A stretch of DNA of 42,358 nt from a phage. The notes under the pieces were generated by a model. It was not told the DNA's origin. It ran no database searches and saw nothing but the letters and a program-made list of their open reading frames with translations. Below, piece by piece: positions 7,130 through 17,978 of the stretch. Numbering within the stretch: position 1 is the stretch's first letter; each line of letters starts with the position of its first letter. The translations under genes were made by a program, and so were the position numbers. Location of the stretch: the sequence record PV357170.1; one strand, given 5' to 3'.

Positions 7130-7444
7130 TCACTTGGAAGCATCTTCTCGCTGCTCTAATTCCAGAATAAACAAGGCGCAACACGCGGCGTGCGCTAGAT
7201 GCGGAAGCCCGCTCTCGGCATCCGTTAACTCCCCATTAGCATGGGCCGTTAGGTGGCGCAGAAGCGCGGCTTTGTACCGAGACCGCCCCTCCTCAACAGT
7301 GTGCCAGCTATGTGCTGCATACTTCTGAGCTCCGAATGTAAGTACATCACTAATGCGGAGCAACGCATTAGGACACCCATCCAGTAGCAGATCCATACGA
7401 GGTTTGCCTGCGTCATACTTCATACCAGTACCTACTGCACTCAT
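7130..7444 (-). CDS. hypothetical protein (104 aa)
   Basis: ORF overlapping the upstream gene by ATGA; no confident motif. Confidence 0.5.
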   Translation of the reverse strand: MSAVGTGMKYDAGKPRMDLLLDGCPNALLRISDVLTFGAQKYAAHSWHTVEEGRSRYKAALLRHLTAHANGELTDAESGLPHLAHAACCALFILELEQREDASK

Positions 7445-7935
7445 ACTGATTCCTCCACCCCATGAGATTTTAAATCGGTTCGATGTTCCGCTGCGCCGTA
7501 GTCACATACAGCGTAAGTAGTGATACCCAGTCGGCGGAAATGCTCAATCACTGCAGGACTATCGTCCCAAGCTGCTACGATATTCTCTAACCCCACCTGG
7601 TTGCGCAGGAACTCCTCTTTGATAATGATGTCCTTTCGGTTGTCGCTGTGTGACCGCATAACCAGCTCAGAGTACAAAACGGAGTTGCGCTCCAGCCAGG
7701 CCTCTGTCTCTGCTCTGACTATATCTGAGCGACCGGTCAATATGATAACCCGTAGCCCTGCTCGCGCCATGATGTTACACACGTCGATAGTGTCCTGGAA
7801 TGGAGGGTCATCCTTAGAGGCCCGGTTGAATTCGTTCCAGCTATCTGTTAGATGCAAATCCACAGTAGGCAGTAAGTGTAAGCGATGCTTACCATCAGCC
7901 AGCGTGCCATCCAAATCGAAGATCACTGCCTTCAC
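7441..7935 (-). CDS. HAD-superfamily phosphatase (polynucleotide 3'-phosphatase-like)
   Basis: HAD motif I FDLDGTL at N-terminus, motif II ILTGR, motif IV AWDDSP; ~160 aa as in the T4 Pnkp phosphatase domain. Confidence 0.6.
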   Translation of the reverse strand: MKAVIFDLDGTLADGKHRLHLLPTVDLHLTDSWNEFNRASKDDPPFQDTIDVCNIMARAGLRVIILTGRSDIVRAETEAWLERNSVLYSELVMRSHSDNRKDIIIKEEFLRNQVGLENIVAAWDDSPAVIEHFRRLGITTYAVCDYGAAEHRTDLKSHGVEESV

Positions 7936-8354
7936 TTAATAATCTCCCGTGCTTTGCGTCGTGCTCTAGCTTTTCGAGCCTTGAGCTTCTGTGCCTGCGC
8001 CTGTTCTTCCGGCGTCTTATGTGTATAGTATAGCATATCATACGGCTCTTTGCGAAGATACTCAACCATATTCTCTAAGAATTGTAGTATTCCCTCTTTA
8101 TCCTGCGTCCCGTAACCAGCCCACCTAGCCACCGCATTATACACCTTGCCTTCTGCCCCATTCGCCCCACGCGATAGGACGCCGCGTATATGACCTGTGA
8201 GGTGATCGTGATCGAGCACCATACTGCTAGCACTTCCACGGGCGGCGGAGGTATCTATAGGACGTTTAGTGAGGGCGCAAACACCTCCCTGCTCCTTTAG
8301 TATCTTTAAGGATACCGCTCTTACCTGCCCTCGAGTTATACGACGTGTCGCCAT
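7932..8354 (-). CDS. recombination endonuclease VII-like Holliday-junction resolvase
   Basis: Motif GGVCALTKRP...VLDHDHLTGHIRGVL matches the endonuclease VII zinc-binding and HDH signature. Confidence 0.7.
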   Translation of the reverse strand: MATRRITRGQVRAVSLKILKEQGGVCALTKRPIDTSAARGSASSMVLDHDHLTGHIRGVLSRGANGAEGKVYNAVARWAGYGTQDKEGILQFLENMVEYLRKEPYDMLYYTHKTPEEQAQAQKLKARKARARRKAREIIK

Positions 8355-8785
8355 GATTTCCCCACCAGCATTCTGTGGGTGCTGGACACACCCATGTTTA
8401 AGCGTTTAGCAATAGCGGATGCACCCCACTCACGATCCTGGGGAATGTACATCTGCCGAAGGTACCGCACAATACCATCATCTAGTTTAGCCCTACCGTT
8501 CTCAGTTCCACGTAGAGCTGTTGCCTCGTTGTTACCCCGCCCGCAGCTGTGCTTGTAGTCTGCGTTAGTTTTGTGTGTTCCGGCTTTTAGGTGTTCCAGA
8601 TTAACGCAGCGGGGATTGTTGCACAGATGTTCCACTACCTCCGGCATATAACCGTACGCATTGTAGAACACAACCCGGTGCTTTGTAGTACTCTTTTTCA
8701 CACCTTCCACTTTAAACCACGCAGTGGCATAACCCAATCCCATACCCTTACAGCCATGGTCTATACACGGAGTCTCCATCACCAT
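8336..8785 (-). CDS. HNH homing endonuclease (paralog 1)
   Basis: HRVV...HLCNNPRCVNLEHL HNH core; GGGGAGA RBS; paralogous to the ORFs at 12819..13253 and 15943..16392. Confidence 0.8.
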   Translation of the reverse strand: MVMETPCIDHGCKGMGLGYATAWFKVEGVKKSTTKHRVVFYNAYGYMPEVVEHLCNNPRCVNLEHLKAGTHKTNADYKHSCGRGNNEATALRGTENGRAKLDDGIVRYLRQMYIPQDREWGASAIAKRLNMGVSSTHRMLVGKSWRHVV

Positions 8786-8979
8786 ACCTCAATCTCCCCT
8801 ACTACATCCAGCAGAGCGTTGTCGTGAATGAGAGAATCCAAATGCTCAACCGTTCTTCGATGTGTTTTGGGTGCTCGTTCACGCAGCGCGTCCAGAATAG
8901 TTTCAAGTTCATCATGTTTCCCCTCGTAGTATAACTCAATCGCCCGCAGGCTCATTTCCTTCGCAGACATCTTCGCCAT
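8779..8979 (-). CDS. hypothetical small protein (66 aa)
   Basis: ATG at 8979 with AGGAGC RBS; track ORF extended upstream to a non-ATG start; overlaps the end of the exonuclease gene. Confidence 0.4.
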   Translation of the reverse strand: MAKMSAKEMSLRAIELYYEGKHDELETILDALRERAPKTHRRTVEHLDSLIHDNALLDVVGEIEVW

Positions 8980-9904
8980 TATCTGGGTGCTCCTGTATCC
9001 ACTGTATGTGCTGTTTATGGTACTCGTGCAGCGACTGCACCCAGTCACGTAGACTGGGAGTAGTCAACAGTGACATCAGATACTGATAGGCAGAATCTGA
9101 TTGGGAGCGCCGCAGGAACAGGCATTCAGCCTCTGCGAGTACATCTTGATTGTTTCGAGCATAAGCCGCTACAACGAACTCTGCAGCGTCTTGCTCTGAG
9201 GTAATAGGGTAGATAGCATCAAAGGCCGTTCGCTTGCCACAGGGCTTCCCATCAAGCAACGTGATGCCTTTGACGTTATCTGCGTCGTCCCCTGCTAGCA
9301 TCTGCCACCAGAAGAACTTCAACCCGTGTGCTCGTACAGGCATAGCCTGGGTGTCATCCCACTTAATCCATCCGAATGGGTCCTCCAGTGCAGGCCACAC
9401 TGTACCGGTTGGGATATCAAACCGGGCCATAGGGCTGAGCCAGGAATCTTTATCCTGTGACATCAGGATACCGCGCTCACCGAAGGCGTATGAATCCATT
9501 ATGAACAGATCATCCGCCTCGAAGAAGTCACTGCTAACCACCTGGATACCTTGCTCAGAATACTGGTCCGGATTGTCAATCAGGTGCCGCTTCAAAGGCG
9601 CCTTCAGTGGTAGTTCCTGCCGGTTAGCGCGCTGTCCCTGGTAGGGTTTGGCCGTAGGCAGATGCCAACGCAAGCACTTGGCACATCCTGTAGGGGTCAG
9701 ATACGCGACTGCTTCTGAGCATCCGACCAGGAACATATCCTCAAGCACTAGCTGATAGAAGCGGCGTATCGCGGTGTCCAAACGTTTCACTGTAGCAGCA
9801 GATTTATAAACTGTGAAATCCGCATCATACAGCAGAATCTTCCCCGAGTTCTGCGGAGCTAACTGCTCCCCGAGCTGGGACAAGTCAACCCCATTGATAA
9901 TCAT
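8936..9904 (-). CDS. 5'-3' exonuclease (T7 gp6 / FEN-like)
   Basis: 322 aa; N-terminal ILLYDADF... and acidic FEADD-type metal-binding clusters typical of phage 5'-3' exonucleases; position between DNA polymerase and endonuclease VII. Confidence 0.65.
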   Translation of the reverse strand: MIINGVDLSQLGEQLAPQNSGKILLYDADFTVYKSAATVKRLDTAIRRFYQLVLEDMFLVGCSEAVAYLTPTGCAKCLRWHLPTAKPYQGQRANRQELPLKAPLKRHLIDNPDQYSEQGIQVVSSDFFEADDLFIMDSYAFGERGILMSQDKDSWLSPMARFDIPTGTVWPALEDPFGWIKWDDTQAMPVRAHGLKFFWWQMLAGDDADNVKGITLLDGKPCGKRTAFDAIYPITSEQDAAEFVVAAYARNNQDVLAEAECLFLRRSQSDSAYQYLMSLLTTPSLRDWVQSLHEYHKQHIQWIQEHPDNGEDVCEGNEPAGD

Positions 9905-10068
9905 TAGACCCCCGCAACCTTCTTAGTTAACTTACGCGCCCAGGATTCCCATGCAGCGAGCGCCTTGCTGTTCTCTACCTTCTCAAACACCCAGCACAGG
10001 ATGGCTACAGGCACTAGAGGGGCCACTAACATAAAATAAAATACTTTGGCAAAAACGTTTCGCATCAT
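9904..10068 (-). CDS. hypothetical small membrane protein (54 aa; below the ORF-track cutoff)
   Basis: Hand translation MMRNVFAKVFYFMLVAPLVPVAILCWVFEKVENSKALAAWESWARKLTKKVAGV; one hydrophobic helix; ATGA overlap with upstream gene and TAATG overlap with the exonuclease start. Confidence 0.4.
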   Translation of the reverse strand: MMRNVFAKVFYFMLVAPLVPVAILCWVFEKVENSKALAAWESWARKLTKKVAGV

Positions 10069-10445
10069 TTACCTTCCAGTTCAGACAGCACCAGCACGGT
10101 GCCGAGCATGTCTCCGATTACTTCCGGAGTACGCAGGCTCTGGTCTACATCGTAGATACAGGAACCAATCTCCGCCAACCCGATACTGAGAGTACCCACG
10201 ATGCGGATAACTGCCAGATCGTCCCCCTTCAACTTATCGGCATGTGCCGCCAGGTCGTTGTGTTCCTTGAAGGCGGTAGCGGCCAGCTCCAGATCCATGC
10301 CGTATAGGGCAGCCAGTTTATCCAGCGCATCATAGAGTGTGCCCAACTCATCATCATCTACAACATAATCATGCGCCGAGTCATATACCACTGAAGCTAC
10401 AGCTTTAGCCAGATTCTTGTATGCGTCTAATACTTTATCCATCAA
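10065..10445 (-). CDS. hypothetical protein (126 aa)
   Basis: Acidic ORF in the replication module; no motif recognised. Confidence 0.5.
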   Translation of the reverse strand: MMDKVLDAYKNLAKAVASVVYDSAHDYVVDDDELGTLYDALDKLAALYGMDLELAATAFKEHNDLAAHADKLKGDDLAVIRIVGTLSIGLAEIGSCIYDVDQSLRTPEVIGDMLGTVLVLSELEGK

Positions 10446-10700
10446 TCATACCCCCAGAAAGTTTACTACTTCATCACGCTTAGCGCGCAGTTTATCAGCC
10501 TGTTCAGCGCACTTAGCTGCTTCAGCTTTGCTGTGTTTGGAGTCTTCTACTCGTGCCTCGGATTGTGCCGCCAGGCGCACTGCATCATCTGCAAACTTAA
10601 TCGACAACTGTTCATTCATTTGTGCCTTAGCGTCAGCACGTTTAGCTTCTGCTGTATAAGCTGCACTTAGGGGTTTGGTGAGAATCTTGATGATATTCAT
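10446..10700 (-). CDS. hypothetical protein (84 aa)
   Basis: Lys/Ala/Glu-rich, probably helical ORF; no motif recognised. Confidence 0.45.
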   Translation of the reverse strand: MNIIKILTKPLSAAYTAEAKRADAKAQMNEQLSIKFADDAVRLAAQSEARVEDSKHSKAEAAKCAEQADKLRAKRDEVVNFLGV

Positions 10701-10752
10701 AGGCTTCCTCTAAGGCCCCAGGCGGGGCCGTATTAGTTAGTAATAGGGTTGC

Positions 10753-11613
10753 TTAGGCTTGCGGTGCAGCAGGCGCTACAGGAGCCGCTGGAGCCACTGG
10801 TGCTGCTGGTGCTACTGGAGCACTCGGTGCCGCTGGTGCAGTGGGCGCAGCCGGGGTGGCTGGGGCTGCGGGGGCTGCGGGGGCTGCAGGAGCAGCCGGG
10901 GCCTGCATAGACTGAGGACTCGGAACCGAACCAGCATTCAGCATAATATCCAACGCACTGCCTGGGAAGTCAACAGCCTTGTACATGTCTTCCTGAATCC
11001 AGTTTTTACTCTTACCATCATCCTTGGTCCCTTCGATATACAAGCTATCCCAGGTTTCTTTGGTCGGATTGTTCCACAAGAACAGCTTAATCTCGGAAGC
11101 ATCCAGCTCAGGCATTTTAATTGGCTCGCCGGTATTTGGGTCGAACTTAGGAATCGGACGGATTGCTGCGAGGTCTACGATGTTGGACTTCTTACCCGCT
11201 GCGCTGGTGTGCTCGTCCACCGGGAACACAAACGCCTGTCCCAGTCGCTGCGCAGCGTGCTTAATGCTACCATCATAGTTGAGCTTGTCGAAGAACTTCT
11301 TGAAGCCCGCACGCTCAAAGTTGCTGATAGTCATCGGATACGGACGGATACGCTTCACCTCACCGTTCGGGCCGTACACCACAATCCCGATGCGAACGTT
11401 CGCCGCGGCAGGCTTACCGGTAGGCTTACCACCTTTAGTCGGCAGGCGCTTACCAATTTCCACGTACTCAGTAAAGTAACCGTAGTACTCACCCTTCGGC
11501 AGCAGTACATCTTCGTACGCACCACCCTGGGCAGTCTCAGTCATATCAACTTCTTGGGTTTCAATCGCGGCAGCAACCAGGGAGTTCAGAGTATCCAGTG
11601 CATTCATAGTCAT
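10753..11613 (-). CDS. hypothetical protein with C-terminal Pro/Ala-repeat tail
   Basis: 286 aa; last ~47 aa are PAAPAAPAAP... encoded by tandem GC-rich nonamer repeats; globular N-terminal domain of unknown function. Confidence 0.6.
   Translation of the reverse strand: MTMNALDTLNSLVAAAIETQEVDMTETAQGGAYEDVLLPKGEYYGYFTEYVEIGKRLPTKGGKPTGKPAAANVRIGIVVYGPNGEVKRIRPYPMTISNFERAGFKKFFDKLNYDGSIKHAAQRLGQAFVFPVDEHTSAAGKKSNIVDLAAIRPIPKFDPNTGEPIKMPELDASEIKLFLWNNPTKETWDSLYIEGTKDDGKSKNWIQEDMYKAVDFPGSALDIMLNAGSVPSPQSMQAPAAPAAPAAPAAPATPAAPTAPAAPSAPVAPAAPVAPAAPVAPAAPQA
10756..10896. repeat. in-frame tandem repeats (about 9-bp units, e.g. three copies of ggggctgcg) encoding a Pro/Ala linker
   Basis: Three adjacent near-identical nonamers around 10863-10889 plus degenerate copies upstream, all inside the 3' end of the 286-aa gene. 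Confidence 0.6.
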
Positions 11614-11664
11614 ATAATTATGTCCTCGTTTAGTTCAAATAATATTTACGTGCAGATGCAGGGC

Positions 11665-11826
11665 TTAGCTGGCTAAGGCCTTAAGACCCAATAGAATGAG
11701 CACTACTAACAGGCAGATCACTAAAGGCCCCCAGAACGGGAGCAGCACCCACAACCAAGACCAGGCGACAACGCCGGTCAGTTTCAGAGTTACAAAGATA
11801 AGACCCAGTATAGAACAGATTTCCAT
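11665..11826 (-). CDS. hypothetical small membrane protein (53 aa, two predicted TM helices)
   Basis: MEICSILGLIFVTLKLTGVVAWSWLWVLLPFWGPLVICLLVVLILLGLKALAS; GAGGTG RBS 9 nt upstream of the ATG at 11826; track ORF starts further upstream. Confidence 0.4.
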   Translation of the reverse strand: MEICSILGLIFVTLKLTGVVAWSWLWVLLPFWGPLVICLLVVLILLGLKALAS

Positions 11827-11845
11827 TTTCATCATCACCTCTATA

Positions 11846-12826
11846 TTATTTAGAACGACCAACCCAACGACCATTGTCGTCAAGTAACATCGGAATTAAC
11901 TGGGGACAACCCTCCGTGATTACCAGTACACCCAGGATTGGTTTCTTACGGGTGAGTCTGCCGTAAGCAAAGGCCATGCTCTTGCGGTCAATCAGGCACC
12001 CTGCATATGCGCCAAAATACAGTGCCGTAGAAGAAGCCGCATATTGTACTTCGAAGCGCCCATGTTCATGCCCCAAAACGAGCGACGTTCTCTCGTGGCT
12101 CGCGTTAAGCATGAAGTCGCCGCTAACCTGATGTTGAAACCGGACGGGCCCGAGAGGTGTACTAAGCACCCAAGCATCGGCCCACGACCAACCTGGAGCA
12201 CTATGCTCGGGGAATAGAATGTCCCGGTATCGCTTAATAAATTGAACTGGTAAGCCGTGAGCCTTGGCGCGGCGATATACAAGACTCCCGTGATTGGAAT
12301 CGCAAACAAGAAGGTTCGGGAATAGTTCATGCAGCTCCTCCAGCACTAGCTTAGCTTTCTCCAGTTCCACCCCGGCACTGTCTAGGTTCGGGTTACTTTC
12401 GTGGAATGATATAGCGTGGCCGTCCGTCTCATCACCAACCTGTACCACCATGTCAGGACAGTATTCATCCCGCACACTTTTTAGGAAGTCCATGGCATCT
12501 ACGTGAGTATAGGGGGCATGCAGATCACCGACAACGAGAATACGGTGGCATACTTCCGGTACGAAGGTTTTACCGATGTCATCAGTGGGGCTAGGCTGTA
12601 TGAGCTTTAGTGCCTCCTTCATGTGAGATACTGCCTTACCCTTGCTACCATTGTGGTCTAGGAAGATGCTGCGCCAGTACTTCACCATCTGGCGGTACAC
12701 CACCGGCTCAGCTAGTCCTGCCAGCTTGTTGTAGGCGGCTGCAGCGTCCACGTTAGAGCTGTGCTTGCTTAGGATATCTACGTGCTGCTCTTTGGTGAAT
12801 AGCTTGATTGTGTTTAACTTAGGCAT
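11846..12826 (-). CDS. calcineurin-like metallophosphoesterase
   Basis: Motifs VVGDLHAPY (GDxH), VQVGDETDG (GDxxD) and CDSNHG (GNH) in the canonical order. Confidence 0.65.
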   Translation of the reverse strand: MPKLNTIKLFTKEQHVDILSKHSSNVDAAAAYNKLAGLAEPVVYRQMVKYWRSIFLDHNGSKGKAVSHMKEALKLIQPSPTDDIGKTFVPEVCHRILVVGDLHAPYTHVDAMDFLKSVRDEYCPDMVVQVGDETDGHAISFHESNPNLDSAGVELEKAKLVLEELHELFPNLLVCDSNHGSLVYRRAKAHGLPVQFIKRYRDILFPEHSAPGWSWADAWVLSTPLGPVRFQHQVSGDFMLNASHERTSLVLGHEHGRFEVQYAASSTALYFGAYAGCLIDRKSMAFAYGRLTRKKPILGVLVITEGCPQLIPMLLDDNGRWVGRSK

Positions 12827-13253
12827 TCCAGCTCCTGTTACTTATCACGTCACTGATTACATGTACACCCACACCATACTTATTAGCAAAGTGTTGCCGC
12901 ATACCTTTCTTGTACGGGACATAGTTGGCCCTAATATCCCGCACGGCGTCCCAAGATAGCAGTGCTTTTGGGTTTCGCTCTCCCCGTACATCTGGGTTCC
13001 TTCCACGTTCCGCACGGTCATTCATATTATCCAAGTGCGTCCCTAGCACTAAGTGCTCTGGATTAATGCACCTAGGGTTATCGCAGGTGTGTCTAACAGA
13101 CAGCCCGGCCATTGCCCTTATGTCTATCCCGTTATGCTCAGCGTACACCACCCGGTGCAGAAGCTCCAATTGTTTAGTTGGCTTATACCATGCCCGGCGG
13201 TACCCGTTCTTATTAAGGCATTTGGTATACCCATGGTCAATGCACATCGACAT
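12819..13253 (-). CDS. HNH homing endonuclease (paralog 2), immediately 3' of the DNA polymerase region
   Basis: HRVV...HTCDNPRCINPEHL HNH core; AAGAGGA RBS; own ~160-bp AT-rich upstream spacer (13254-13416). Confidence 0.8.
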   Translation of the reverse strand: MSMCIDHGYTKCLNKNGYRRAWYKPTKQLELLHRVVYAEHNGIDIRAMAGLSVRHTCDNPRCINPEHLVLGTHLDNMNDRAERGRNPDVRGERNPKALLSWDAVRDIRANYVPYKKGMRQHFANKYGVGVHVISDVISNRSWNA

Positions 13254-13416
13254 TTGGTATCCTCTTATGTTGTTCCTACTCGTATCACATTAATTCTCGG
13301 TAAATCACAGAATCAAGTCAGAGTCAACAAATAATTTTAATTAATTATCTGCTTGACCCTAGCTAATTCTCATGCTACCCTAACCCCCTACACCACCCAA
13401 GGGTCCACCTATATCA

Positions 13417-13638
13417 TCACTCCACGATAAGTTTGTACTCTCCAGAGAAGAAGGTAATACCATCCCCAGGCTTCTCTGAGTTGTTATCTGGATTGATTAA
13501 TTCCACCTCCCAGAGTTCAGGATCATAAGATATCACACGATGCTGAGTGCCAGGTGCAAAGTAATCACGGTGTCTAGGTTCTAATGGTTCCGGCCCAAGT
13601 CCTAGTATCTCCACAATACTACCTGGTTTAATAGTCAT
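13417..13638 (-). CDS. hypothetical protein (73 aa)
   Basis: ATGA overlap with the DNA polymerase stop; no motif recognised. Confidence 0.45.
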   Translation of the reverse strand: MTIKPGSIVEILGLGPEPLEPRHRDYFAPGTQHRVISYDPELWEVELINPDNNSEKPGDGITFFSGEYKLIVE

Positions 13639-15974
13639 TCTACTTTCTCCTTACTGTACATGCTTGTACCCATTTCAGCTTCCGCTGGGAACGGGACCTG
13701 CCCAATGATACCGTAGTTAGGCCATAGCTGGTGGATACGCTTAGGTGCGTCTTCCATGCACTGCTTAACTAACAGGCTCGCTTCTCTGCCTACCTCTGGA
13801 TTGGCACTGTCAAGATACAATGCATCGTGTACGTTCGTAATCAAGCACACCTGATTGTCGAACCAGTCACGTGCCAGCATCGCACGCAGAACCATACCGG
13901 CTGCGACTGCCATCAAGAAGAACGCCTCACCTTGACACCAGTAGTTAGCCATCTCGGTTTCCTTGTAGTCCATCACCTTCTGCTTGCGCTGGCCAGGGAC
14001 TACTTCCTTCCACTGCTCCTTCTGACGGAAGCTGTAGCGGGCACCTGCTGGGCTGGTCCAGGTACCAATTCGGTAGATACGATAACTACCATCATCAGCT
14101 TGCTCCCGGTAAATGCGTCCAGCTGCCCCGGTACGCTCTACTTCTTCCTTGACAACAGCGCGGAATCCTATGGTTGTTGGGAACAGCTTAGCCTCGTTAT
14201 CCAGGAACGCCTGTGCATACTCTACGGTACATCCGGTAGCAAAGGCGATACCCTTAGCCGTAGCACCATACTGCGCAGCAAAACTAGGGGGCTTAATGTC
14301 CGTACGCTGCTGCTTCCAGTACTTGTAGTCTGGCCCGTCAGCGTTATGGCACAGGTCGTACATCTCTTCGTAGGTTTTGTTCTCCTTAAATGCTAGTCGG
14401 TAACAGTGCATGTCCGTGCCGGACTGCAGTAGCCCCAGTAGTTTAAGGTCTCCAGTGTGAACACAAGACATAACCACTTCCAGGGCCGAATAGTCAACCT
14501 CAGTGATGCGACCAGATTCTCCGAAACGAGAGGTGAACATCTGTTTAACCCGGCTCGTCCCATCGCGCGGTAGATTCTGGAGATTCGGGTTAGAACCTGA
14601 CAGTCGCCCGGTGACGGTGGCACAGGTGTTAAGACGGTGGTGGATAATACCTGAACCATCAGGGTTCTGAGGTATGACGTATTGAAGCATGCCCGAGGTC
14701 TTTTTAACTGACCCATCTTCGTTGTACTCCGTTCGTAGATAGTAGGTTCCTGTGTCCTTCTCCAGAGCACCTAGCTCGTTCACCAATCGACAGAACTCGA
14801 ACCCGTGACGGGCTAGCGCTTCCATAGCATCAGTACTGGTGCTGTAGATTGGTGTCCCATCCTGCAGATTCCGGGCTTGCCTGAACTCTCCACGCTCAGC
14901 ATACTTCTCTCGGAGTACCTCGGGCAGTTCTTGGATGTTAACCAGGCCTGGGCAGAAGTAGAGGTCCTCTTCCCATTTGAGTTTCTCTTCCGCTGTATCT
15001 ATGCGGAAGACTTTTGGTAAGCCCTTGTTCTTCCCGGCCTTGTATGTAGTCGCCCCAGGGGGAGCGGGCATATCATCCACAGCAACCCAAGTGTCGCCTA
15101 CTTGCCAGTAGTCCGCCTTGACGTATTGCGGCGGGTCGTAGGGCACCTTCTTGCGGTACTTGATAGGGCCGCCATACACCAGCGCAGACATATGAAAGTC
15201 AGAACCGAAGTTGAAATCTAGCGTCTCCGGCAAGTCCTTGGGGATATACTGCTGCAGCTCCTTCTTAATCTCCAGTATACGCTGTTCCTGCTCTTCTTGG
15301 TTCTTGCGAGCAATCGGCATATTCACGAACAGACCGAACCATTCGCAGTAGGCCCAGGCCAGTAAGGCATCCATGCGCTCCCATACGTACTGCATTTGGT
15401 TGCGCTCTGCAAAGATACCGCACTGGCCGTAGAAGCACAGGGCCGTGTTCGGTATATCCCCGTTAACTAGGTAGTCGTGCAATAGTATAGGGTCGATCTG
15501 GGAGGTTAATACACCTTGCTCCCATAGAATCTTAACACCGTCTACTTTGTGCGTACCGCCGTACTTAGGAGCTGTCTCGTCCAGTGACGGATACATACTC
15601 TGAAAGTCCGAGGCGATGTACTCAGAATGCATCGTACAGAATACGCGACCTCCCCGCTTTAGGAAGGCCTCAAACTCGGCGCGCGCAAAGGTTAGGAACC
15701 AGCTAATCTCATATGCGGCGTTGTGGGCCACAATCAGCCAACAGTCAGCTGGTATTGGGAGCCATTCTGATACAGGTGCCGCTTCAAAGTGCGCGCGACT
15801 GTTATACCGTACACTCTCTACGGGGCCTACTTCTACCGTACCGTCATCGTGCGTGCGGTCAATACGCCACGCTGATTCTACGATGTAATTATCCGGACAG
15901 TACGGGGAAGCAACACTACCGTAATATGGGTGATTTTGCGTCTCATAATCCGTTATCAGGATGCTTCTGCTCAT
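13635..15974 (-). CDS. family A DNA polymerase with 3'-5' exonuclease domain
   Basis: Exo I ITDYETQ at N-terminus; Pol motif A DYSALEV, motif B KPPSFAAQYG, motif C NVHDALYLD; GGGGAGGG RBS. Confidence 0.9.
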   Translation of the reverse strand: MSRSILITDYETQNHPYYGSVASPYCPDNYIVESAWRIDRTHDDGTVEVGPVESVRYNSRAHFEAAPVSEWLPIPADCWLIVAHNAAYEISWFLTFARAEFEAFLKRGGRVFCTMHSEYIASDFQSMYPSLDETAPKYGGTHKVDGVKILWEQGVLTSQIDPILLHDYLVNGDIPNTALCFYGQCGIFAERNQMQYVWERMDALLAWAYCEWFGLFVNMPIARKNQEEQEQRILEIKKELQQYIPKDLPETLDFNFGSDFHMSALVYGGPIKYRKKVPYDPPQYVKADYWQVGDTWVAVDDMPAPPGATTYKAGKNKGLPKVFRIDTAEEKLKWEEDLYFCPGLVNIQELPEVLREKYAERGEFRQARNLQDGTPIYSTSTDAMEALARHGFEFCRLVNELGALEKDTGTYYLRTEYNEDGSVKKTSGMLQYVIPQNPDGSGIIHHRLNTCATVTGRLSGSNPNLQNLPRDGTSRVKQMFTSRFGESGRITEVDYSALEVVMSCVHTGDLKLLGLLQSGTDMHCYRLAFKENKTYEEMYDLCHNADGPDYKYWKQQRTDIKPPSFAAQYGATAKGIAFATGCTVEYAQAFLDNEAKLFPTTIGFRAVVKEEVERTGAAGRIYREQADDGSYRIYRIGTWTSPAGARYSFRQKEQWKEVVPGQRKQKVMDYKETEMANYWCQGEAFFLMAVAAGMVLRAMLARDWFDNQVCLITNVHDALYLDSANPEVGREASLLVKQCMEDAPKRIHQLWPNYGIIGQVPFPAEAEMGTSMYSKEKVE

Positions 15975-16392
15975 TCCATACCCTCCCCTTTATGATATTA
16001 GATATGTATCCTTGACTTATCCCGAAGCGTCTCGCTATAGATACCTGGGTCTCACCGCCAGCATATGCTTCTCGTATACTGTGCACGTCTTCTGGGGTAA
16101 GTCTGGCAGCAGGGTTGCGGCTGCCCAGCAAATTACGCGCACCTTTATTTCGGTCCTGCATATTATCACTAGAAGTCCCTAGTAGCAGGTGCTCCGGATT
16201 TATGCACCGAGGATTGTCACACGAATGCCGGACTACAAGTCCCGCGATATCACTCAGCTTCAAGTTGTGGGCTATACAATACGCTTTGCGGTGGCTTCCA
16301 GTTGTCTCTCCATCAAATCTGGAGCGGCCATATCCAGCGCACTTTCCTCGGCAAGTGCTTCCCTTCTGCCCGTGGTCGATACAATCTGTCAT
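15943..16392 (-). CDS. HNH homing endonuclease (paralog 3), overlapping the DNA polymerase start
   Basis: HSCDNPRCINPEHL core plus C-terminal helix-turn-helix-like IARRFGISQGYISNI; ATG at 16392 (track ORF starts at a TTG at 16398); 3' end overlaps the first ~10 codons of the polymerase gene. Confidence 0.8.
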   Translation of the reverse strand: MTDCIDHGQKGSTCRGKCAGYGRSRFDGETTGSHRKAYCIAHNLKLSDIAGLVVRHSCDNPRCINPEHLLLGTSSDNMQDRNKGARNLLGSRNPAARLTPEDVHSIREAYAGGETQVSIARRFGISQGYISNIIKGRVWNEQKHPDNGL

Positions 16393-16697
16393 CTCCAATT
16401 AATCCTCCGCGCCTTATTGACAGCCAAGTGCACAATCAGCCGGCTGCTAATTAGCACGGGCCGTATGCTGAAAGTACCCACAGATGCAGCGTACGCCTTA
16501 ATTACCTCTTCGTCGAGATAGTTAATGTCGGACGGTTTAAGCATTCTGCCTTCTCCCACACTGGATGCACATACCACCTATAAATGTCAACCTTGCCCCG
16601 CAGTGCTTGCACTCCCAGTCTGTCAGTATAAACATAGTATATCTCCATCCATCATCTGTGTACCTACATAGCGCCCTCTAGGAAGGCGCTAGGGAAG

Positions 16698-17978
16698 TCA
16701 CTTGTTAATCTGCCCTTCGTTAAATCGGCATCTACCTGGGTCGAATGCTACCTCGAATTGCAGTAGCGATTCCTTACCCGATAGCGCCATCTTATTCTTC
16801 GGCGTACTGATACCACGAATGTTTTGCATATGCGGCTGCTCGTTCCTGTCCAAGCACCCCATCATAATTGCTAAATCCAAAGCACCTTGCACACCAATCT
16901 TACTCTGCTTCATTGCTGTGAGCGGTGGAAACAGCAGGTTATAACCTTCGAGTGAAAGCTGCATAGTACCAATAACGGCACAGTCATTCTCACACCCCAG
17001 GATTCGCAGCTCCTGCCACTTCGCCTCTAGGTTCTGGTGTTCGCTCTCCATCGTACCACCACGGATGTTAGCTACCATATCTATGATGATTACCGCCGGG
17101 CGCATCTCCTCCATTAGCGTAGAGATTTGAGCCATAGTAAGAGAGTGTGCCGCCTTGATACGGATGCGGTCAGCCCTACCTACTTTCTCCAAATAGGCCG
17201 GCACAAACTCTTGCTTACTGTGCCTGTCCTTAATCTCAGCCAGAGTCCAATGCAGCGCCGCTTGGTATACCCTCGGCACAGTGCGCGTCGCCGGGCCTTC
17301 ATTAACCAGCCATAGAATCGGACGATCCCCGTACACCTCCGGTTGCTGCTGCATCTGCTTAGCAAAGTCCACAGCAATAGCAGCGAGTAGGCTAGTTTTA
17401 CCAGAATCAACAGGGGCAGCCACAGCAATACAATCACCACCGCGAAGCCCGCGGATGCTATTAGAGAGTTGCTCAAATACGCCCAGTTTAAGACCACCAC
17501 TTTCATCAGTCGCGGCAAGTATCTCATCAACACTTCCGCTCTCCCACTCTAGTAGCGAATCATGAACAGCAGCACCATCCCCGTACTTGCGCTGGAGGTG
17601 CTTCATCTCCAGTAGATAATCAACCTCCTCACCGTCTTGGTAGCGCTGCGTGAGCGCTGCAACCTCTCCGCTGTATGCCAACTCATTCAGGGTCTGCACA
17701 ATCCCCACCACAGAATCCTGTGGTACGGCTTGTACTCCCCGCATAAGCTCATCCATAATCACCCGCTCTTCACGGGATAGATGCCCGGCCCGGAGGTTGA
17801 GCATACTCTGCATCGCATCCCACTGCACCTCTTGGTGCTCTGGGTACGTGTTCCAGTACAGCCCTACCCAGTCCAGCAGGTTCGAGGTGTCCGGCGCAAG
17901 CATAGACTTGGGTATCTGCTCTCGCAGTCGGTTCCAGACCTTCTGCGTGCACATTGCACGCACAACTATTAAGTCCAA
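16698..17978 (-). CDS. replicative DNA helicase (DnaB / T7 gp4 helicase-domain-like)
   Basis: Walker A AAPVDSGKTSLL and Walker B-like VIIIDMV; 426 aa; adjacent to primase gene. Confidence 0.8.
   Translation of the reverse strand: MDLIVVRAMCTQKVWNRLREQIPKSMLAPDTSNLLDWVGLYWNTYPEHQEVQWDAMQSMLNLRAGHLSREERVIMDELMRGVQAVPQDSVVGIVQTLNELAYSGEVAALTQRYQDGEEVDYLLEMKHLQRKYGDGAAVHDSLLEWESGSVDEILAATDESGGLKLGVFEQLSNSIRGLRGGDCIAVAAPVDSGKTSLLAAIAVDFAKQMQQQPEVYGDRPILWLVNEGPATRTVPRVYQAALHWTLAEIKDRHSKQEFVPAYLEKVGRADRIRIKAAHSLTMAQISTLMEEMRPAVIIIDMVANIRGGTMESEHQNLEAKWQELRILGCENDCAVIGTMQLSLEGYNLLFPPLTAMKQSKIGVQGALDLAIMMGCLDRNEQPHMQNIRGISTPKNKMALSGKESLLQFEVAFDPGRCRFNEGQINK

Follow-up and report, generated by a model that had tools for sequence, protein, structure and literature searches.

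The genome of a Drulisvirus phage (KP34-like; Autographiviridae, Slopekvirinae), analysed here as one stretch of 42,358 nucleotides (nt) that we call the window (sequence record PV357170.1), carries three genes for HNH proteins in its replication module: HNH1 (8336..8785, 149 residues), HNH2 (12819..13253, 144 residues) and HNH3 (15943..16392, 149 residues), whose positions are referred to below as sites 1, 2 and 3. The three open reading frames (ORFs) are, with high probability, free-standing homing endonuclease genes of the HNH (His-Me finger) class, of the T7 gp7.7/gp5.3-like type in which an HNH_3 domain is joined to a helix-turn-helix (HTH). The most informative feature is the linkage of each HNH gene to a diverged 5' allele of the gene downstream, which encodes a recombination endonuclease VII at site 1, a metallophosphoesterase at site 2 and a family A DNA polymerase at site 3. 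Each HNH gene and a strongly diverged 5' segment of its downstream neighbour form a cassette that is inherited together, at site 1 only in part, and the cassettes have moved between phage backbones as blocks that include the flanking gene segment. The minus strand carries every long ORF of the window, and all features given below lie on it.

Three HNH ORFs at these positions on the minus strand, their paralogy and a common core motif had been proposed in an original prediction made from the sequence alone, and all of these points stand. Pairwise blastp alignment gave 41% amino acid identity between HNH2 and HNH3 (E-value 6e-32), 33% between HNH1 and HNH2 (5e-18) and 30% between HNH1 and HNH3 (2e-16), and a tblastn search found no fourth HNH copy in the window. 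The core H-x-C-D/N-N-P-R-C-I/V-N-x-E-H-L is invariant in the alignment of the three paralogs, as are four cysteines, and the catalytic H, the N, the N-x-E-H-L and the distal N of the beta-beta-alpha-metal motif are kept in all three. Every one of the proteins exceeds the Pfam cut-off for HNH_3 (PF13392; 41.2, 39.7 and 30.3 bits against 24.8), HNH families of PHROG match at 1e-17 to 1e-25, and zf-His_Me_endon is reached by HNH2 (28.3 bits against a cut-off of 27), with HNH1 and HNH3 just under it. The three are paralogs of the HNH_3 nuclease family, and distant homologs (30-45% identity) occur in many podophages, T7 gene 7.7 among them. The C-terminal HTH-like segment of the original prediction received a mixed answer: PHROG HTH families match HNH3 at 8e-7, and an AlphaFold2 (AF2) model of HNH3, built on a three-sequence alignment of the window paralogs, contains three helices at residues 100-134 (predicted local distance difference test, pLDDT, 70-83), whereas every Pfam HTH match falls below its cut-off and the model is otherwise of low confidence (mean pLDDT 47.5, nuclease core below 50). 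A C-terminal HTH in the HNH proteins is thus plausible, with weak support. A sequence search of the PDB with the paralog profile returned a single weak match, to the His-Cys box of I-PpoI (E-value 0.09), and no match to I-HmuI. The suggestion that three similar copies provide substrates for intragenomic recombination did not hold, as the longest exact run common to the copies is 9 nt and their best DNA alignment covers 72 nt at 76%. A compositional anomaly was sought in the HNH genes and not found, their G+C content being 49-50% against 51% for the genome.

The region from 7900 to 17000 is matched by 277 phage records, mostly Klebsiella and Escherichia phages of Drulisvirus, and about 280 related phage records were considered in what follows. 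Orthologs of HNH3 (at least 90% amino acid identity) lie beside the polymerase gene in 27 of them, 26 records at 95-98%; orthologs of HNH2 (at least 89%, to 98%) lie beside the phosphoesterase gene in 17, and HNH1-type genes (73-84%) beside the endonuclease VII gene in about 25, site fidelity having been judged in records with annotated features under the match. Each ortholog group is therefore found in roughly 6-10% of the relatives and at one site, and the HNH genes are not core genes conserved in synteny throughout the group. The comparison with relatives lacking the insertions that the original prediction had proposed defined the slot borders: the closest relative, KPV811, is about 92-95% identical over the aligned backbone and is without all three HNH genes. 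IK_ECO1 has HNH2 and HNH3, and phiHAO78-1 has different HNH genes at sites 1 and 2. None of the small ORFs in the "empty" slots of Minorna, AV102, K66PH128C1 and RMN1 is similar to HNH1, HNH2 or HNH3. The sporadic occurrence, the single site for each group and the block transfer with a flanking segment agree with the view, already put forward in the prediction, that these are free-standing homing endonuclease genes. At all three sites the left slot border is exact and coincides with translation start signals, the start of the downstream gene is overlapped by its HNH gene (by 32 nt for HNH3, 8 nt for HNH2 and 19 nt for HNH1), and the 3' end of the HNH gene contains the ribosome-binding site (RBS) and start codon of the gene that follows.

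The linkage, which was absent from the original prediction, is sharp at site 3. The slot is bordered on the left by a 51-residue backbone ORF (16389..16544, phrog_4548), which is also present in the HNH3-less phages Minorna and AV102 and which the HNH3 start codon (ATG at 16392) overlaps as ATGA; an alternative TTG start lies at 16398. The motif GGAGGxCTAAxTGGAAATG is conserved at this junction, where it precedes either HNH3 or unrelated small ORFs. The polymerase gene (13635..15974, 779 residues, Pfam DNA_pol_A, E-value 1e-26) begins with the ATG at 15974, inside the final 32 nt (about 10 codons) of HNH3, an overlap that had been predicted correctly. The N-terminal 118 or so residues of this polymerase occur in two sharply distinct forms, one in every HNH3 carrier (MSRSILITDYETQNHPYYGSV...), which is four residues shorter, and one in every non-carrier (MTTSIMHIDLETENNEYYGSK...). 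From polymerase nt 1 to about 355-360 the window is 98-100% identical to HNH3 carriers and 54-72% identical to non-carriers, whereas past nt 900 the pattern is reversed, with the non-carrier KPV811 at 98.2% and the carriers at 78-82%. The switch is sharp (nt ~352-357), and the association with HNH3 ends beyond nt ~357, so that carrier and non-carrier identity delimit a patch of nt 1 to ~357 (15618..15974, residues 1 to ~118), within which the ExoI D-x-E motif "DYET" is encoded. Recent transfer is implied by the HNH3 cassette itself, which keeps 97-100% identity in backbones whose adjoining polymerase sequences are about 20% apart.

In a database-wide search, no record was shown to hold the window-type patch at more than 90% identity without HNH3 or a derivative of it, the match in Hope, Kpn BHU1 and Kpn BHU2 being split or cut by record ends so that the adjacent part was not checkable there. 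The derivatives found beside the patch have a replaced 5' end (KpV17Sklif, BUCT86) or an internal deletion (SRD2021), and some 200 other records match the polymerase patch at only 66-70%. The linkage between HNH3 and its patch also appears to be old, since HNH3-family genes at identities from 44 to 100% all adjoin the "DYET", four-residue-shorter polymerase allele, in lineages that include VLC4 (44%), Buco (62%, a different genus), KX1, KpV17Sklif and the window, with identities of 69% and 79% also represented. In a side observation on Buco (a Shigella phage, genus Bucovirus; 2565-2826), an internal GTG is the start of the deposited polymerase coding sequence. The open frame continues upstream as far as MSSSILITDYET... 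and has precisely the overlap with the 3' end of its HNH gene that is found in the window, so the annotated polymerase appears to be truncated by about 85 codons.

A footprint of insertion is preserved in VLC4, where codons 1-11 of the HNH-less polymerase allele (MTTSIMHIDLE) make up the beginning of the HNH ORF (9566-10021), which continues as MGGCVDHG.... Behind this HNH3-family gene, the 5' end of the polymerase has been replaced over about 650 nt. The near-identical phage VLC1 (around 9200) has the matching empty site and is 94-100% identical to VLC4 upstream of the polymerase; the two differ by the cleanly inserted cassette, and the DNA on its flanks is otherwise 99-100% identical. The comparison places the VLC4 insertion immediately past the ExoI D-x-E codons, and by analogy this position suggests that the extreme 5' end of the polymerase gene may be where HNH3-family enzymes act.

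At site 2 the same anatomy recurs with a different partner. The original prediction had HNH2 and HNH3 bracketing the polymerase gene, which is correct only by position; HNH2, however, is linked not to that gene but to one that it overlaps, the gene for a metallophosphoesterase (11846..12826, 326 residues, Pfam Metallophos), the final 8 nt of HNH2 covering its start, and takes over the RBS position that serves the phosphoesterase in HNH2-less phages. From nt 1 to about 270 of the phosphoesterase gene (12557..12826, residues 1 to ~90), identity to the window is 80-98% for HNH2 carriers and 57-70% for non-carriers, and non-carrier alleles are longer by 4-22 residues (22 in AttikonH2; 18-19 in KPV811 and in most of the rest), whereas from nt 450 on the window is 95-100% identical, in 90-nt bins, to the HNH2-less KPV811. 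The patch thus delimited by carrier and non-carrier identity stops just short of the Metallophos catalytic domain, which begins at residue 95. Across the database, HNH2 accompanies a full-length patch in 17 records, and every other record matches the patch at 66-69%. Between HNH2 and a 73-residue ORF (13417-13638) that follows the polymerase in gene order lies an intergenic spacer of 163 bp (13254..13416; 38.7% G+C against 51% for the genome), and an AT-rich spacer of about this length had indeed been predicted as HNH2's own. Its size and composition were right and its attribution was not: homology with KPV811 starts again at 13262, relatives without HNH2 retain the spacer directly upstream of the phosphoesterase gene, and, since this conservation extends up to the RBS, the spacer is backbone upstream of the slot rather than part of the HNH2 cassette. 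The junction falls at the RBS, where the conserved spacer ends ...CATAAGAG and is followed, depending on the phage, by HNH2, by another HNH gene or by the phosphoesterase start.

Site 1 shows the weakest form of the association. The start of HNH1 overlaps the end of a 67-residue backbone ORF (8779..8982, phrog_6923), which is kept at 92-100% in every relative and borders the slot on the left, and the final 19 nt of HNH1 overlap the start of the endonuclease VII gene (7932..8354, 140 residues, Pfam Endonuclease_7, E-value 6e-10). The phrog_6923 ORF is conserved up to the ATGG start junction, ending ...GAGGTATGG, past which HNH1, a small ORF or endonuclease VII follows, depending on the phage. 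HNH1 has no close ortholog, the closest being 73-84% identical in amino acids and at most 76% in nucleotides (best match 84% and 76%, respectively). Over nt 1 to about 315 of the endonuclease VII gene (8040..8354), the HNH-bearing phages phiHAO78-1 and VLC4 are 76-92% identical to the window, whereas HNH-less phages, and also VLC1, are at 42-60%. In the database, the window-type form of endonuclease VII was found only beside an HNH gene of the HNH1 or the phiHAO78-1 type. The linkage is nevertheless partial, and the linked patch not obligatory, because VLC1-type HNH1 genes adjoin the other allele of endonuclease VII. As an observation in its own right, the HNH gene of phiHAO78-1 at this site (1908-2375) has an N-terminal nuclease region unrelated to that of HNH1, a final stretch of about 50 residues that is 53% identical to HNH1 (window 8336-8490) and the same overlap with the endonuclease VII start (…W-R-H-V), a combination that suggests that nuclease domains have been swapped while the DNA-binding tail was conserved.

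Further HNH or endonuclease-VII-like genes fill other slots of the replication module in five relatives (phiHAO78-1, SRD2021 and VLC1 among them), for example in the gap between primase and helicase, after the exonuclease gene, or before the phosphoesterase gene (AttikonH2, VLC1). The whole module is therefore a patchwork of endonuclease slots, three of which are filled in the window.

All three HNH proteins are under purifying selection, since the ratio of nonsynonymous to synonymous divergence (dN/dS) is 0.05-0.19 in all three ortholog groups, with 0.06-0.19 for HNH3, 0.05-0.17 for HNH2 (synonymous divergence, dS, up to 1.1) and about 0.1 for HNH1. Decayed copies occur as well. In SRD2021 (~9199-9555), a deletion that takes out both the DNA-binding tail of HNH3 and the ExoI motif of the polymerase joins HNH3 residues 1-119, in frame, to the polymerase at about residue 52, and the deposited polymerase coding sequence begins within HNH3-derived sequence; the fusion may reflect genuine decay of a cassette or an error of assembly. 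At site 3 of Kpn13 the HNH gene is truncated.

From sequence comparison we infer cleavage activity, target position and immunity of the linked allele, the target sites from linkage and from the single insertion footprint, that of VLC4. When an HNH-less relative infects the same cell, the nuclease would be made from the replication-module transcript, its C-terminal helical domain would bind the "empty" allele of the downstream gene at a site within its 5' part or close by, and its HNH domain would nick or cut that allele. The break would be resected and then repaired by recombination on the carrier genome as template. With homology available only upstream of the slot and downstream of the patch, the nuclease gene and the patch would be copied as one block, and the need for recombination to resolve beyond the diverged patch would account for a fixed right-hand junction. 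The carrier would be protected by its own patch, which differs by 30-45%, and the linked patch is likely to be a cleavage-resistant allele.

Several observations weigh against homing as the full explanation. Alongside the VLC1-type genes with their other endonuclease VII allele, all HNH3 carriers have one and the same right-hand junction, at polymerase nt ~355, which fits a single ancestral junction or homology-limited repair as well as many independent homing events. The divergence of HNH2 to a dS of about 1.1 under strong purifying selection indicates long retention, which is not required of a purely selfish element. The AF2 model, at its mean pLDDT, is too poor to confirm the predicted fold, and the weak match to I-PpoI is the only sequence match to a solved structure.

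The long retention bears on an explanation that we consider unlikely, in which the nucleases are kept for the benefit of the phage, as weapons against the replication genes of co-infecting relatives or as promoters of useful recombination, with self-propagation secondary. The low dN/dS values (0.05-0.19), the persistence of HNH2 and HNH1 lineages at a dS of at least 1 without decay, and the position of the HNH genes within the replication operon, where they are translationally coupled, all speak for such a role; one report describes an intron HNH endonuclease that mediates competition between co-infecting phages (PMC11620839), and another describes SegB of T4/T6 as an aid to immune evasion (PMC13096335). 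Yet only about 6-10% of close relatives have the genes, the nearest has none of them, and decayed copies exist. This role would also overlap with homing rather than exclude it, as it needs the same cleavage and the same immunity allele, and a beneficial role in competition between phages is compatible with the data and would fit the long-term purifying selection.

The shared junction of the HNH3 carriers, together with the co-divergence of HNH genes and patches over long times, would also be expected if the HNH genes were inactive fossils which, with their linked segments, mark old vertical allele lineages reshuffled by ordinary recombination, with no current mobility. We hold this to be quite improbable in view of the purifying selection on all three proteins, the invariant catalytic motif and cysteines, the 97-100% identity of the HNH3 cassette across polymerase backbones about 20% apart, and the clean insertion that separates VLC4 from VLC1 in flanks 99-100% identical. 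That the proteins assist terminase in DNA packaging, as in HK97-like phages, is extremely improbable and was rejected on position and distribution, for the HNH motif is all that speaks for it, whereas the genes belong to the replication module, about 14-22 kb from the ORF that by size and position would be the large terminase (30058-31914) and thus not adjoining it, are not group-wide, most relatives packaging normally without them, and fall in the HNH_3 family with a DNA-binding tail rather than in the small terminase-associated HNH type.

Homing, which we prefer, is best compared with the free-standing endonucleases of the T-even phages, MobA and MobE (HNH) and SegA-G (GIY-YIG), known for "intronless homing", which likewise sit between conserved genes and are sporadic among relatives. 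Those endonucleases cut the endonuclease-less genome near but outside the insertion site (PMC2988022; mobE, PMC2790892), and repair copies the endonuclease gene and flanking DNA from the carrier, resulting in localized marker exclusion (PMC2988022). In both systems flanking DNA of a neighbouring gene is co-inherited and the carrier allele differs from the cleaved (T-even) or empty (window) allele. Unlike the T-even genes, those of the window belong to Autographiviridae (Drulisvirus) and encode HNH_3 proteins with four conserved cysteines and an HTH tail, and the linked segment is a fixed block of 270-360 nt, 30-45% diverged and counted from the downstream start codon, in contrast to a variable tract with scattered polymorphisms. 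The T-even enzymes do cleave, whereas for the window enzymes cleavage is deduced from comparing sequences. Variable HNH genes in KP34-like and related replication modules have been reported descriptively (PMC7013548, PMC6115819).

Among other HNH proteins, the small podophage proteins of the T7 gp7.7 type, to which gp5.3 belongs, include homologs at 30-35% amino acid identity over nearly the full length. The T7 HNH genes differ from those of the window in genomic position, and we know of no defined homing sites for them and of no documented linked target-gene patch. I-HmuI, I-HmuII and I-BasI consist of an HNH nicking nuclease with a C-terminal HTH-type DNA-binding region. Like HNH3, which adjoins such a gene, this group is directed at a phage DNA polymerase gene, but its members are intron-encoded in the DNA polymerase genes of Bacillus phages, while the window genes are free-standing. 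In the HMU phages, flanking markers of the competitor are subject to marker exclusion (PMC2988022). The likeness to I-PpoI, weak and local as it is, lies in H-x-C-x-N-x-R-C-x-N-P-x-H-L with its zinc-binding cysteines and in the zf-His_Me_endon matches of all three HNH proteins; I-PpoI is a eukaryotic nuclear intron enzyme of different overall architecture.

Several features of the surrounding module complete the picture. Upstream of site 3 lies a gene for a DnaB-like helicase (16698-17978, Pfam), and a 5'-3' exonuclease (8936-9904), named from the annotation in relatives, is separated from the phosphoesterase by further genes. A scan of 7800-17000 for promoters and terminators showed no enrichment over shuffled controls (9 promoter-like sites against 9.1 expected, 2 terminator-like sites against 6.3) and no convincing HNH-specific signals. 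Directly past the helicase stop codon is a GC-rich inverted repeat, TAGCGCC-TTCCTAGA-GGGCGCTA (16655-16695), which is conserved in every relative inspected, has no T-run and might be an RNA processing site or a terminator for the phage polymerase. A 32-residue mini-ORF with two CxxC pairs (MFILTDWECKHCGARLTFIGGMCIQCGRRQNA) lies at 16537-16635, and the stretch around it (~16545-16655) has no blastn match in KPV811 or IK_ECO1. Adjoining site 1, a variable slot (7138-7928) holds two genes that are absent from KPV811 and present in Minorna and AV102, one for a protein with a dATP/dGTP diphosphohydrolase N-domain (7130-7444) and one for a PNKP-type HAD phosphatase (7441-7935). A protein of 286 residues ends in a long Pro-Ala repeat (APAAPAAPAAPAAPATPAAP..., 10753-10900); it has no Pfam match, and its names in relatives ("Fe-S oxidoreductase", "SSB" and "large tegument protein") conflict and look unreliable.

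For annotation the finding is routine, and the HNH elements are unremarkable examples of an established class. Proteins on deposit under the name of HNH endonucleases match HNH2 and HNH3 at 96-98% identity, and HNH1 is the variant that diverges further. What is added is the anatomy, in which each nuclease gene is coupled with a 5' segment, highly diverged and with sharp bounds, of the polymerase, phosphoesterase or endonuclease VII gene; such linked-allele cassettes are a clean example of a known phenomenon. This anatomy predicts where the targets lie and which natural phage pairs are suited to mapping them, the donor and recipient pairs being the window with KPV811 and VLC4 with VLC1. Tentatively, and with considerable doubt, the cassettes could be paired weapons of nuclease and resistant allele that cut essential or near-essential replication genes of co-infecting Drulisvirus phages and force the replacement of a 5' domain. 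Were this so, the target of HNH3 would be the polymerase region that encodes the proofreading ExoI motif, and modular allele exchange within the replication module would, in therapeutic Klebsiella phages, be driven mainly by homing endonucleases. Cocktails against Klebsiella make use of Drulisvirus phages, and in mixed infections elements of this kind would bias recombination and the inheritance of markers between the members of a cocktail.

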